From an uncultured Candidatus Saccharibacteria bacterium (GTDB taxonomy: Bacteria > Patescibacteriota > UBA1384 > CAILIB01): 64,000 nucleotides of DNA. Within the stretch, counting starts at the first letter, position 1; every line of letters starts with the position of its first letter. Positions 48,043 through 62,432 of the stretch are shown piece by piece. A program made the translations under genes and the position numbers. The notes under the pieces were generated by a model. It was not told the origin of the DNA. It was given only the letters and a program-made list of their open reading frames with translations, and ran no database searches. The stretch covers positions 84,363-148,362 of the forward strand of contig CAZQKK010000002.1 in NCBI GenBank assembly GCA_964593885.1, given 5' to 3'.

Positions 48043-48243
48043 CTACTTAGTAAGTTTCTTGGCTACCTTGCCAACTGCTTTGAGCAGGCGACCACGGTAG
48101 AAACCAGAAGTCTTTGACACGCGGTGGCGAATCATGAGATCTCCTGAAGCAGGATCAACGGTGACAGCAGGAAGATCGAGGCCGAGATTGCGGCGACGGT
48201 TACCTGACCTAGGGGGACTGGTGCGTTTTTTGGGAGTTGCCAT
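48043..48243 (-). CDS. rpmF: 50S ribosomal protein L32, the Cys-less (C-) form.
   Basis: MATPKKRTSPPRSGNRRRN...HRVSKTSGFYRGR aligns to L32 MAVPKKRTSK...HRVC..CGYYKGR with every Cys replaced. Confidence 0.7.
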   Translation of the reverse strand: MATPKKRTSPPRSGNRRRNLGLDLPAVTVDPASGDLMIRHRVSKTSGFYRGRLLKAVGKVAKKLTK

Positions 48244-48285: not shown

Positions 48286-51126
48286 CTACTCTGCAACCAC
48301 AAAGGAGACGAGCTTGCCTATTACCACAATGGTACGGGTAACCTGCTTGCCGGTAAGCTGCTGCTGGACTGCAGGATCAGCCTTCACAATGGCTTCAATC
48401 TTGGCTTGGTCTGTGATGCGAGCATCAACTTGTAGCTTTGCACGTACCTTGCCGTTAACCTGCACCACGTAAGTTGCCACGTCCTGCTGGAGGTAGTCCT
48501 CAACGTAGGTAGGCCACGTCTGTAGTGAGATGAGGCCGCTGCCGCCGGTGATCTGCCAGAGCTCTTCGGTAATGTGTGGGGCAAGGGGCGAAAGGAGCTT
48601 GAGGATGTTCTGGTACCCAGTGATGCTCATTGAGCTCAACTCCATCAGGGCGTTAACGCTCTCCATGAGGGTAGAAACCGCAGTATTGAAAGAGCACGCT
48701 TGGATATCTTCGCCCACCTTCTTGATGGCAGCGTGGACAACCCGGTTCTCATCAGCTGAAGCGTTTGGATCAGTTGCCTTTTCTTGGAGACGCCACACCT
48801 TTTCAAGGAACCTGCGCGATCCAATGATACCCTTGGTGTCCCATGGCTTTTCAAGCTCAAAAGGTGCCATGAAGAGCTCGTAGAGCCTTAGGGTGTCTGC
48901 GCCAAACTCAGTAATCACATCGTCTGGGTTAATCACGTTACCCTTAGACTTGGACATCTTCTGGTGGTCTGGACCCAGGATCATACCCTGGTTACGCAAC
49001 TGGGTGAAAGGCTCATCAAAGCAAATCATGCCCTCGTCAAAGAGTACCTTGGTGAAGAACCTGGCGTAGAGGAGGTGGAGAACCGCGTGCTCAGCGCCAC
49101 CAACGTAGGTATCAACCGGCAGCCAGCGCTGCACCGCTTCTCTGTTAAAAGGACCATCAGTGTACGAAGGGTCCGGGAACCTGAGGTAGTACCAGCTTGA
49201 ACAGACAAAGGTGTCCAGGGTATCAACCTCACGGGTGAGCTGCTGCTTGGTAGTTGGGTCTGTGTAACGTTGCCACTCGTGGGCTTCGGCGAGGGGAGAT
49301 GTACCCGTTGGCTTGAAGTCTACGTTCATGGGAAGCTCTACCGGCAAGTCTGCATCGTCAACCAGAACTTCGCTCCCATCCTCAGTGTAGGCAACGGGAA
49401 TTGGAGCGCCCCAAAATCTCTGGCGCGAAACCAGCCAGTCGCGGAGACGGTAGGTGGTAACCATTTCGCCTCCAGCAAGCTTGGCAATATCGCCCGCTGC
49501 TTCCATAGAAAGCTTGCCATCAAAGTCTCCTGAGTTGGTGAGAGGTCCATGCTCTGAGTACGGCTGGAAGCCGTCTTTCAACCAGGCGAGGGCAAACTTG
49601 TGGGTTTCTGGTGTAAGGAAGCTTGGTAGCTCTGCGGCACTAAGCCAGCACAAGTTGTGACGTGATGCCTCGTGATCCTCAATGGCGTCTTTTTCTTCAT
49701 CCTTAAGCTGCACCAGGTAGACGTGGCCACGTACCAGCTTGTTTGTCTGCTTTGGGAGGTGGTAGAAGAGACCATCAATCACTCCAAGCTTCTGGGAGAT
49801 CTCGGCGTTGCGGTAGCCGGTTTCCTCGTGAATTTCCTTGAGTACCGTTTCCTCTGGGGTAACTCCTGGGTCAATGGTTCCGGTTAGCAAGGTTTTTGCT
49901 CCCCAGGCACTCTCTTTCCAGTCTAGGCCGAGGTACTTCTCCTCAGTTGGGTGTTTAACAAAGACAATGACACTCTCCCCAGTAACCACTGGTTGATCGG
50001 GGCGATACTTAGCAGGCTCAGTTTCTTGAACCAAGCGAGGAGCGACAACCTGCACAACGGGCAGTGAAAACACTTTGGCAAAAGCAAAGTCTCGCTCATC
50101 GTGGGCAGGGACCGCCATGATGGCGCCGGTTCCGTAGGTTGCGATGACGTAATCTGCCGTCCAAATAGGAATCTGTTGCTTGGAGAGGGGATGCACAGCG
50201 TATGAACCAGTGAAAACGCCAGACTTTTCCTTGCTGAGGAACTGCCGCTCAAGCTCTGACTTCTTTGAGGTCTGCTCTCGGTACTGCTTCACCGCAGCAA
50301 CTTGCTCAGGAGTAGTGAGCGAATCTACCAGCGAGTGTTCTGGGGCGATCACTAGGTACGTGGCGCCGTAGAGGGTATCAGGACGGGTGGTAAAGACTTC
50401 AATCTTTTCAGAAGATCCTGCTACCTCAAACCAAATCTTTGCCCCTTCAGATTTGCCAATCCAGTTTCGCTGCATGGTCTTGATCTTCTCTGGCCAATCA
50501 ACCCTATCAAGTCCTTCAAGGAGGCGCTCTGAGTAATCGGTAATCTTGAAGTACCACTGCTTAAGTTGGCGCTGGATGACTTCAGTGCCGCATCGCTCAC
50601 ACTTCCCGGATACTACCTGCTCGTTAGCAAGCACGGTTTGGCAGCTTGGACACCAGTTCACCATACCGTCTTTGCGGTAGGCCAGGCCCTTCTTGTAGAG
50701 CAGCTTGAAGAGCCACTGGGTCCAGCGGTAGTAGCTTGGGTCTGACGACGCTAGCTCGTGCTCCCAGGCGAGGCCAATACCCGCCTGCCTAAACTGACGC
50801 TTGAACTCTTGAATGTTCTGTTTGGTGGTGATGGAAGGATGAACACCTGTTTTGATGGCATAGTTTTCCGCTGGCAAGCCAAAAGAGTCCCAACCCATGG
50901 GGTGGAGAACATTCTTGCCATCCATTCTGGCTTTACGCGATAGGACGTCGGTACCGGTGTAACCAAGGATGTGCCCCACGTGGAGACCACTACCGGAAGG
51001 GTAGGGGAACATGTCCAGAATGTAGGCCTTTTCGGCATGAGTATCGGCTGATGGCTCAAAGACACGGGAATCTTCCCATACCTGCTGCCATTTCGGCTCT
51101 ACCTCGAGGTGATCGTAGCGTTTCAT
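48286..51126 (-). CDS. leuS: Leucine--tRNA ligase carrying an internal Nudix-like domain insertion. The ATG at 51126 was chosen; the track ORF extends 63 codons upstream.
   Basis: HIGH as HVGHILGY, editing TTRPDT, AVPAHDERDFAFAK, YRLRDWLVSRQRFWG, KMSKSKGN. Confidence 0.95.
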   Translation of the reverse strand: MKRYDHLEVEPKWQQVWEDSRVFEPSADTHAEKAYILDMFPYPSGSGLHVGHILGYTGTDVLSRKARMDGKNVLHPMGWDSFGLPAENYAIKTGVHPSITTKQNIQEFKRQFRQAGIGLAWEHELASSDPSYYRWTQWLFKLLYKKGLAYRKDGMVNWCPSCQTVLANEQVVSGKCERCGTEVIQRQLKQWYFKITDYSERLLEGLDRVDWPEKIKTMQRNWIGKSEGAKIWFEVAGSSEKIEVFTTRPDTLYGATYLVIAPEHSLVDSLTTPEQVAAVKQYREQTSKKSELERQFLSKEKSGVFTGSYAVHPLSKQQIPIWTADYVIATYGTGAIMAVPAHDERDFAFAKVFSLPVVQVVAPRLVQETEPAKYRPDQPVVTGESVIVFVKHPTEEKYLGLDWKESAWGAKTLLTGTIDPGVTPEETVLKEIHEETGYRNAEISQKLGVIDGLFYHLPKQTNKLVRGHVYLVQLKDEEKDAIEDHEASRHNLCWLSAAELPSFLTPETHKFALAWLKDGFQPYSEHGPLTNSGDFDGKLSMEAAGDIAKLAGGEMVTTYRLRDWLVSRQRFWGAPIPVAYTEDGSEVLVDDADLPVELPMNVDFKPTGTSPLAEAHEWQRYTDPTTKQQLTREVDTLDTFVCSSWYYLRFPDPSYTDGPFNREAVQRWLPVDTYVGGAEHAVLHLLYARFFTKVLFDEGMICFDEPFTQLRNQGMILGPDHQKMSKSKGNVINPDDVITEFGADTLRLYELFMAPFELEKPWDTKGIIGSRRFLEKVWRLQEKATDPNASADENRVVHAAIKKVGEDIQACSFNTAVSTLMESVNALMELSSMSITGYQNILKLLSPLAPHITEELWQITGGSGLISLQTWPTYVEDYLQQDVATYVVQVNGKVRAKLQVDARITDQAKIEAIVKADPAVQQQLTGKQVTRTIVVIGKLVSFVVAE
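49543..50043 (-). other. Nudix-hydrolase-like domain, about 135 aa, inserted in LeuRS between the AVPAHDERDFAFAKV and NSGDFDGK/YRLRDW segments.
   Basis: TGTIDPGVTPEETVLKEIHEETG aligns to the MutT Nudix box GGKIEMGETPEQAVVRELQEEVG (G-x5-E-x7-REUxEE-x-GU, with R to K and the first E to V), flanked by beta-strand-like segments VIVFVKH and HVYLVQL. Verified by reverse-complementing 49813..49881. Confidence 0.6.
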
Positions 51127-51166
51127 GCTGTTAACTATAGCAGAACTCACGTATACTGACAGGCAC

Positions 51167-51445
51167 ATGAAACCGCTCAGCCACCTCCAGCACACCCTGT
51201 TAGTTGCGATATTCCGGCACCCACACGTGCACGGGTATGTGCTGCTGGAATACGGTGCGCAGAGTAGCGTGTACGATGCCCTAAGGGCGCTTGCCGCGAG
51301 GGGTCTCGTAGACACCGTTGTCGCAGGTTCAAGTAACGCACCTCAGCGTAAAACCTACCAGATCACTAAATCTGGGCGAAGCTACCTAGGTGACGGGAGT
51401 GCCCCAACGGAAGCCAGACTCACTCACTACGGAACACCTACCTGA
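51167..51445 (+). CDS. Small winged-helix transcriptional regulator, PadR-like.
   Basis: LLVAIFRHPHVHGYVLLE...YDALRALAARGLVD...QRKTYQITKSGRSYL. Divergent from leuS. Confidence 0.35.
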   Translation: MKPLSHLQHTLLVAIFRHPHVHGYVLLEYGAQSSVYDALRALAARGLVDTVVAGSSNAPQRKTYQITKSGRSYLGDGSAPTEARLTHYGTPT

Positions 51446-62356: not shown

Positions 62357-62432
62357 TGGTGGACCTTAGGGGACTCGAACCCCTTACCTCTTCCATGCCA
62401 TGGAAGCGCTCTACCAGATGAGCTAAAGGCCC
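62357..62432 (-). tRNA. tRNA-Ala, anticodon GGC, 76 nt with CCA encoded.
   Basis: Minus strand reads GGGCCTTTAGCTCATCTGGTAGAGCGCTTCCATGGCATGGAAGAGGTAAGGGGTTCGAGTCCCCTAAGGTCCACCA. The cloverleaf folds cleanly, with the G3:U70 Ala identity pair, a T-loop TTCGAGT and an anticodon loop AT-GGC-AT. Confidence 0.9.

Follow-up and report, generated by a model that had tools for sequence, protein, structure and literature searches.

A complete Nudix domain in the CP1 editing domain of a Saccharibacteria leucyl-tRNA synthetase and its apparent cassette-like turnover in Patescibacteria

INTRODUCTION

Aminoacyl-tRNA synthetases (aaRS) are among the best-studied enzymes, and the CP1 domain of leucyl-tRNA synthetase (LeuRS) serves as a drug target. 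What would a Nudix-hydrolase-like domain do inside such an enzyme? The question is raised by the leuS gene of an uncultured Candidatus Saccharibacteria bacterium, which lies in a stretch of 64,000 nucleotides (contig CAZQKK010000002.1, positions 84,363 to 148,362; the whole stretch is called the window below) and in which an initial annotation had described a complete domain of this kind. We found that the insert is a complete single-domain Nudix module, held by two short linkers in a surface loop of CP1, and sequence comparisons indicate that this LeuRS feature is common in the candidate phyla radiation (CPR; Patescibacteria), where it appears to be gained, lost and swapped in a cassette-like manner. 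A second hydrolase in CP1 across much of a major bacterial radiation, apparently active as judged from its conserved residues, would be a new accessory activity of a synthetase.

RESULTS AND DISCUSSION

The insert is a complete Nudix module in the editing domain

The window protein is an orthodox bacterial LeuRS: it scored 989.5 bits with the bacterial LeuRS equivalog TIGR00396 leuS_bact of NCBIfam (cut-off 548.4) and is collinear in alignment with the structures 1H3N (Thermus thermophilus, Tt in residue numbers) and 4AQ7. The motifs HIGH (as HVGH), TTRPDT, AHD and KMSKS, which the initial annotation had pointed out, are all present in the translation (Table 1), and the CP1 residues T246, T247, R248, D250, T251 and D343 are invariant among 84 LeuRS. 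In the alignment with 1H3N, residues 1-362 correspond to Tt 1-363 and residues 522-731 to Tt 376-592; the 159 residues between these flanks (363-521, window 49564-50040) thus take the place of a 12-residue CP1 loop, Tt 364-375. The insert begins 20 residues past the editing-site Asp343, and the spacing from FAFAK to NSGxF is 191 residues here compared with 29-48 in close insert-free relatives. The span first annotated, 49543-50043, corresponds to LeuRS residues 362-528. The domain ends in Table 1 were placed with Tt 224-417, which we take to be the limits of CP1. The match to Pfam PF13603 spans residues 220-367, or profile positions 1-146, and stops short of the full 185 positions because the insert interrupts the editing domain.

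By profile, fold and catalytic residues the insert belongs to the Nudix superfamily. Pfam PF00293 (NUDIX) matched the insert alone with 47.1 bits (E 3.1e-12), above the gathering score of 21.1, and the full-length protein with 42.4 bits (E 8.9e-11). The AlphaFold2 model of the insert alone, built from a 30-sequence alignment (pLDDT 93.8, pTM 0.87), has the strand and helix order of an independent alpha/beta/alpha Nudix sandwich whose box lies on a loop-helix-loop, and residues 380-518 form the same compact ordered domain in the full-length model (pLDDT 92.1, pTM 0.82). The structural neighbours listed for the insert are all Nudix folds and nearly all of them Nudix enzymes. Profile, fold models and structural neighbours thus bear out the domain as first proposed, and the two strands quoted for it, VIVFVKH and HVYLVQL, are present in the insert. 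The Nudix box had been said to align position by position with that of MutT, and this holds in part. The three glutamates of REUXEE are kept, as K430-E431-I-H-E434-E435-T-G437-Y438, but the full 23-residue consensus GX5EX7REUXEEXGU is not matched, with Val422 in place of the first Glu and Lys430 in place of the Arg; both are positions of structural kind and bind no metal. Direct and inverted repeats flanking the insert were sought, and short matches at chance level were all that was found.

Two other identities of the segment were considered and rejected. The initial annotation had allowed that it might be a known leucyl-specific insertion. The leucine-specific domain, an insertion at about Tt 577-634 (or about Tt 593-637) between the second Rossmann half and KMSKS, lies elsewhere than the insert at Tt 364-375 and is missing here, as GPDHQ alone separates QGMIL from KMSKS (window 48946-48990, residues ~713-727). 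An intein-like element was rejected because the full-length model predicts a domain that is folded within the mature protein and tied in by simple linkers; no search aimed at splicing motifs was made. Of the zinc modules of this LeuRS, the first knuckle, CPSC...CERC, is retained, and the four cysteines of the second are absent, with YTEDGSE and YTDPTTKQ standing for CxxC...CxxC of Tt (window 49240-49440, residues ~563-630).

The trivial explanation would be an assembly or annotation artefact, in which a chimeric contig or a frame error joined a Nudix gene to leuS. We found nothing in its favour and give it practically no credence. The minus-strand open reading frame (ORF) is unbroken from 51315 to 48286 and continuous with LeuRS on both sides of the insert, and GC content stays constant, at 0.52-0.54 over the insert as in the flanks. 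Moreover, the NCBI record P0001 holds a 100% identical protein (960 aa, with the start called 14 codons earlier), 76 orthologues have the same architecture, and it recurs at 74 independent genome loci, which rules out a gene-fusion error.

Table 1. Features of leuS, its product and the adjoining genes in the window
Feature	Residues	Window position	Strand	Basis or remark
leuS, LeuRS with internal Nudix domain		48286-51126	-	946 aa; stop codon at 48286-48288
HIGH signature (HVGH)	49-52	50971-50982	-	Translation; G51 and H52 invariant in 84 LeuRS
CP1 editing domain including insert	~223-563	49438-50460	-	Tt 224-417 mapped via 1H3N alignment
TTRPDT in CP1	246-251	50374-50391	-	Translation
AHD in CP1	341-343	50098-50106	-	Translation
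N-terminal linker PRLVQETEPAKYRPDQP	363-379	49990-50040	-	1H3N alignment, translation; linker also left in fold-less P0012
Nudix fold proper	380-518	49573-49989	-
Nudix box GTIDPGVTPEETVLKEIHEETGY	416-438	49813-49881	-	Translation; catalytic E431, E434, E435
E486-x3-H490-x3-W494, downstream of box	486-494	49645-49671	-	Conservation in 76 insert-bearing LeuRS
C-terminal linker into CP1, GFQPYSEH	519-526	49549-49572	-	GxLxNSG strand follows; G527 and S532 invariant
KMSKS signature	723-727	48946-48960	-	M724, S725 and K726 invariant in 84 LeuRS
rpmF (ribosomal protein L32), between leuS and nusB		48043-48243	-	66 aa; close to PF01783 gene in same place in P0009 genome
PadR-like gene, divergent from leuS		51125-51445	+

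Catalytic residues of the insert are conserved

A search with the whole LeuRS gave, among its 120 best matches, 77 proteins of 920-1150 aa with PF00293 and 43 proteins of 635-817 aa without it. Conservation was scored in 76 non-identical insert-bearing LeuRS, which share 44-79% core identity with the window protein. G416, E431, E435 and W494 are present in all 76, G437, K459 and L474 in 75, E434 in 72, N462 and E486 in 71, W403 in 68, Y398 in 67 and H490 in 64. E486 is probably an extra metal ligand or base. Within the box, the positions of the first Glu and of the Arg vary together: the pair is the canonical E and R in 32 of the 76, and in 25 a K is combined with a non-acidic residue, which fits a structural salt-bridge swap around fixed catalytic glutamates. 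This alignment shows the predicted catalytic and metal-binding glutamates to be under strict purifying selection across Patescibacteria, and their fixation together with the paired exchange speaks for a hydrolase that works and against a domain in decay. We infer that the insert would be a Mg2+-dependent pyrophosphohydrolase acting in cis with LeuRS.

Alternatively, the fold may be kept as a ligand-binding sensor or a structural prop without turnover, and nucleotide binding would then tune the movement of CP1 between aminoacylation and editing states. The off-consensus residues V422 and K430 of the window box are in line with such a role, as is the presence of non-catalytic Nudix folds (NrtR, AraR, the C-terminal domain of MutY, mitoribosomal L46) among the structural matches. 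However, loss of catalysis normally erodes the very residues that stay fixed or nearly fixed here (E431, E435, E434, G416, G437 and E486), second and third copies of the domain in other LeuRS keep the motif, and the two box deviations covary as a pair. We consider a sensor or prop without turnover very improbable.

The domain is widespread in leuS of Patescibacteria

When 1.84 billion cluster representatives were searched exhaustively with the insert by phmmer, 220 relatives scored E<=1e-3; a word-index search with the insert alone had given nothing, which is a limit of that method since phmmer found 220. Among the best 150 of the 220, the matching segment of every long protein is flanked on either side by LeuRS sequence, and the remainder comprises fragments, Nudix proteins of ~160 aa that stand alone and a small number of two-domain proteins. 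A scan of species-level genomes (one genome per species) with a close alignment of eight insert sequences showed that at least 168 Patescibacteria genomes encode a relative of the domain, and in 74 of the 80 loci which were fetched it lies inside leuS. These 80 loci come from Paceibacterota/Parcubacteria, Saccharibacteria, Berkelbacteria, Moranbacteria, Uhrbacteria, Levyibacteriota and Gracilibacteria. The same insertion was thus found in LeuRS of related Patescibacteria, where the initial annotation had proposed to look for it. Three loci with a CPR-type leuS-Nudix gene (L060, L061 and L066) sit in bins labelled Woesearchaeota archaeon (one) or Gammaproteobacteria (two), and these bins are probably mislabelled or contaminated.

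The domain enters leuS at three sites, namely the standard CP1 loop, the entry of CP1 (residues ~207-241 of the query) and residue ~620 in the ZN2 region of Tt. LeuRS with two or three Nudix domains include P0121, P0123, P0124, P0137, P0140, P0148, P0244 and those of loci L023, L025 and L036, with tandem copies that bring the number to as many as three per protein (P0121, P0123; L023, L025, L036), and all extra copies keep intact REx2EExG boxes. At L079, a leuS with no Nudix insert is preceded, 106 nt upstream, by a free-standing 188-aa gene of the insert family (L079:3881-4447), whose sequence is closely similar to the insert of P0117; this is a case of fission or of the Rosetta-stone kind. 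Five further free-standing family members have unrelated neighbours (L028, L034, L042, L043 and L046). Carriage by phages was looked for, and just three viral contigs were found, with generic Nudix domains of 30% identity.

Nudix segments are deleted and replaced in place

A neighbour-joining tree of LeuRS cores puts the window protein in a clade in which insert-bearing and insert-free LeuRS are mixed: it groups with the pair of P0002 (with insert) and P0006 (without), and P0009 and P0012 are both without. P0012 retains the two linkers (VPRLTQDAEPDKYHPDQP and FTQHGTLINSG) with no Nudix fold between them, a pattern that points to a clean deletion. Identities of core and Nudix segment are uncorrelated (r 0.05 over 2850 pairs). 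The window protein shares 79% of its core and 59% of its Nudix domain with P0002, 64% and 24% with P0020, and 44% and 74% with P0086, and in a sliding-window comparison with P0086 identity is ~82% at residues 361-460 and 40-60% elsewhere. Either the Nudix segment has been exchanged between lineages or its type-1 form is more constrained than the LeuRS core; these comparisons would fit both.

Because the leuS-nusB-rnc neighbourhood recurs, being present in all four related genomes examined (Table 2), the compared leuS genes are orthologues and not paralogues. The wider neighbourhood (peptidase S11, aspS, pheT) is mostly common to the four genomes, and the upstream genes differ in the P0058 genome. 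Syntenic orthologous leuS genes carry one of three cassette types or none. The third type is borne by P0016 and P0020, has its nearest relatives in LeuRS with distant cores, and in orthologous leuS has taken the exact place of another type. The differing Nudix state of syntenic orthologues indicates that the segment has been deleted and replaced in place.

Table 2. Related genomes with the leuS-nusB-rnc backbone
Genome	NusB identity to window	RNase III identity to window	LeuRS
P0009	86%	82%	794 aa, no Nudix
P0020	73%	65%	Nudix type 3
P0003	69%	62%	Nudix type 1
P0058 (labelled Berkelbacteria)	52%	58%	Nudix type 1; Nudix 71%, core 47% identity

This turnover also bears on whether the domain has any link to leucylation. 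It may be an ordinary housekeeping Nudix hydrolase, serving nucleotide sanitation with one specificity or another, that is merely carried along by an essential, constitutively expressed gene in a loop which tolerates it; the reduced genomes of CPR bacteria are said to accrete domains commonly in this way. Close relatives have lost the domain and left linker remnants (P0012), which means that LeuRS can function without it; CPR LeuRS take other large inserts at several loops, the family has free-standing members among unrelated genes (the five loci named above), and a search of the 64-kb window found no other Nudix gene. But chance should spread the domain over many host genes, and among the 150 listed matches LeuRS are the sole large hosts, the other multi-domain partners being a serine hydrolase and a weakly supported anticodon-binding-like domain. 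Three separate entry sites in leuS, multiple copies, a split-off gene which can stay beside leuS (L079) and the exact exchange of type-3 cassettes in orthologous genes point the same way, and hitch-hiking without a functional link seems rather unlikely to us. Whatever its function, the behaviour of this cassette (three sites, up to three copies, replacement, clean deletion and fission) recommends it as a clean system in which to follow the entry of domains into essential genes.

A possible producer-degrader of dinucleoside polyphosphates

For a pyrophosphohydrolase acting in cis with LeuRS, we tentatively propose adenine dinucleoside polyphosphates (ApnA and relatives: Ap4A, Ap3A, Ap4N) as the likeliest class of substrate, with somewhat less than even confidence. 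It has been shown that aaRS form Ap4N via the aminoacyl-adenylate, and that Nudix enzymes cut such compounds asymmetrically to AMP and ATP (PMC7705103). In LeuRS, enzyme-bound leucyl-adenylate would be attacked by ATP, ADP or another nucleoside triphosphate instead of tRNA to give Ap4A, Ap3A or Ap4N, and the Nudix module would cleave these dinucleotides and return AMP and ATP or ADP to an extremely small cell. CPR-type cells, as far as known, depend on nucleotide salvage. A hydrolase placed on the producer would also keep the pool of alarmone or cap precursor low with no need for a separate gene.

The best structural and profile matches after 2azw include the Aquifex Ap4A hydrolase 3i7u, the diadenosine polyphosphatase Rv2985 of Mycobacterium tuberculosis (9cxx), the Thermus Ap6A hydrolase 1vc8 and the lupin Ap4A hydrolase 1f3y. 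A tyrosine 16-18 residues past the box is said, in work of Dunn and colleagues from 1999 that we use as a lead only, to mark ApnA hydrolases, and the insert has F454-Y455 at +16/+17, with F in 62 and Y in 14 of the 76 sequences at position 454, and Y in 49 and F in 23 at position 455. Direct reading of the insert revealed no NADH-type SQPWPFPxS or CoA-type motif, and as far as its sequence tells, it is a minimal Nudix domain that lacks the additional motifs of the NADH, CoA and ADP-ribose subfamilies. None of the NCBIfam Nudix equivalogs (RppH, MutT, NudC, NudE, NudI) came near its cut-off on the insert, with at best 22.5 bits against 116 for the RppH models (PRK00714) and 18.5 against 97.9 for the MutT 8-oxo-dGTPase TIGR00586, and hence the insert is not assignable to RppH, MutT or another curated equivalog. 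The cis link to LeuRS is supported by the leuS-specific hosts, the three sites, the intact extra copies and the neighbouring gene at L079.

Several points weigh against ApnA as the substrate. The nearest solved structure, 2azw, carries no function assignment, and RppH, MutT1, NudI and diphosphoinositol polyphosphatases (DIPP) lie within 1-2 Z units of the ApnA hydrolases. We know of no evidence that LeuRS is a major producer of Ap4A. Moreover, a simple scavenger of by-products would not account for three copies in one LeuRS, and it would leave frequent loss unexplained, as in the P0009 genome with its close NusB and Nudix-free LeuRS (Table 2). If Ap4A is nevertheless the substrate, the protein would be a natural fusion of producer and degrader, and the debate on whether the Ap4A made by aaRS is a signal or waste would become directly testable. 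Action on mischarged adenylates, which the initial annotation had also suggested, is unlikely on chemical grounds: because the acyl-phosphate of an aminoacyl-adenylate is no nucleoside diphosphate-X linkage, Nudix hydrolysis or pre-transfer editing of aminoacyl-adenylates is improbable.

Other accessory domains and a possible role on RNA

Many CPR LeuRS (~19 of the 80 loci; e.g. L079:4553-7576, P0098, P0115 and P0117) bear another inserted enzyme, ~190 aa long, which is an alpha/beta serine hydrolase (Pfam Ser_hydrolase PF06821, Abhydrolase_1/6) with the nucleophile elbow GHSFGG. It sits in the first CP1 hairpin, at residues ~236-242 of the window protein, and often occurs together with the Nudix insert, both being present in P0098, P0115 and P0117; the window LeuRS is without it. 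The stand-alone protein P0239 (393 aa) combines a Ser_hydrolase-like domain at 7-196, just under the Pfam cut-off, with an insert-family Nudix domain at 249-359. In addition, P0168, P0221 and P0276 are encoded by complete genes of ~250 aa (L089:5001-5741, L090:3225-3965 and L091:197-952), in which a ProRS-like anticodon-binding domain precedes an insert-family Nudix; the likeness of the former is weak (Pfam HGTP_anticodon 18.9 bits against 21; TIGR00408 E 3e-6). One of these contigs is probably archaeal (DPANN-like) because a prefoldin gene adjoins.

The main rival to the ApnA proposal is that the module acts on tRNA or other RNA at the acceptor-end domain and removes a pyrophosphate-containing group, with LeuRS serving as a repair or decapping platform. 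Candidate groups would be a 5' triphosphate, an NAD or Np4N cap as for RppH, and ADP-ribose or a 3' pyrophosphate installed on tRNA-Leu by toxins. The insertion domains of LeuRS surround the acceptor-end path, the insert lies in CP1, and each of the three sites is a surface loop belonging to an insertion domain. The weak best NCBIfam matches of the insert are RppH models, and RppH and BdRppH are among its structural neighbours, but the RppH equivalog score is far under its cut-off. Likewise, the ProRS-like domain before the Nudix of P0168, P0221 and P0276 would suit an RNA substrate, although its likeness is below the Pfam threshold, and the serine hydrolase in CP1 of many CPR LeuRS and in P0239 would fit a centre of editing or repair that has been enlarged. 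In being quickly gained, lost and exchanged, the domain resembles genes related to conflict more than housekeeping genes. RNase P makes tRNA 5' ends as monophosphates, however. On balance we regard action on RNA as unlikely; if it does occur, the idea of editing would extend past mischarged amino acids.

A more specific form of this idea is that the Nudix cassette and the CP1 serine hydrolase together make up a mobile module for repair or decapping of tRNA ends, swapped between leuS genes under conflict-type selection, which would clear tRNA-Leu or other RNAs of ADP-ribose, of a 3' pyrophosphate or of an Np4/NAD cap. Ultra-small episymbionts would then have a synthetase which defends its own substrate. 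This idea appears quite improbable to us.

Comparison with known systems

The small Nudix (di)nucleoside polyphosphate hydrolases whose chemistry the ApnA proposal invokes are free-standing, separate proteins (3i7u; Thermus Ndx1, 1vc8; Rv2985/MutT1, 9cxx; RppH/NudH) with 14-24% identity to the insert, whereas the window domain sits inside an aaRS as an insertion. 2azw, a structural-genomics entry for a MutT/nudix protein of the Firmicute Enterococcus faecalis, is likewise free-standing (23% identity) and offers no transferable function. The bifunctional NadM-Nudix protein (NMN adenylyltransferase / ADP-ribose pyrophosphatase) resembles LeuRS-Nudix in that a Nudix domain is covalently attached to an ATP-using HxGH enzyme, and the NadM nucleotidyltransferase belongs to the same Rossmann-like superclass as class I aaRS. 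The NCBIfam model NF003791 gave a faint match to the insert in this comparison (E 0.025). NadM-Nudix differs in being an end-to-end fusion, in having a Nudix of the ADP-ribose subfamily and in that its host is not an aaRS. Accessory enzymes on synthetases are also represented by IleRS with an N-acetyltransferase domain (GNAT; NCBIfam NF040702), an Ile/Leu/Val-type class Ia synthetase, and by the CPR LeuRS with a serine hydrolase in the same domain, CP1; in both, fold and chemistry differ from Nudix. NadM-Nudix and class Ia synthetases with extra domains are the nearest precedents, and neither puts a Nudix domain into the editing domain. In the LysRS-Ap4A-HINT1 axis and with ApaH or YqeK, a dinucleotide made by aaRS is under the control of a dedicated hydrolase (PMC7705103). 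Those hydrolases are separate proteins of the HIT, ApaH and HD folds, whereas LeuRS-Nudix joins the producer and a putative hydrolase in one polypeptide.

The initial annotation had taken the architecture to be undescribed. Full-text literature searches indeed found no paper on a LeuRS with an internal Nudix domain, and NCBIfam has no dedicated model for one, but the architecture is neither rare nor unique, for hundreds of CPR LeuRS bear a PF00293 tag in databases already. The source annotation of the insert-bearing proteins reads 'leucine--tRNA ligase' or 'class I tRNA ligase family protein' only. As far as we can tell, LeuRS-Nudix is visible in databases yet undescribed.

Genomic context of leuS in the window

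The ATG at 51126 (MKRYDHL; MKRYDHLEVEPKWQ) is favoured as the start of leuS because it pairs with residue 1 of T. thermophilus LeuRS in the 1H3N alignment. The mechanical ORF runs 63 codons further upstream, to a GTG at 51315 (window 51127-51315, minus strand), and this extension overlaps the PadR-like gene on the opposite strand. Downstream the gene order is leuS-rpmF-nusB-rnc, and upstream lie the divergent PadR-like gene and a Trans_reg_C regulator. The sole RNA gene identified in the window by Rfam and ARAGORN is a tRNA-Ala(GGC) at 62357-62432 on the minus strand.

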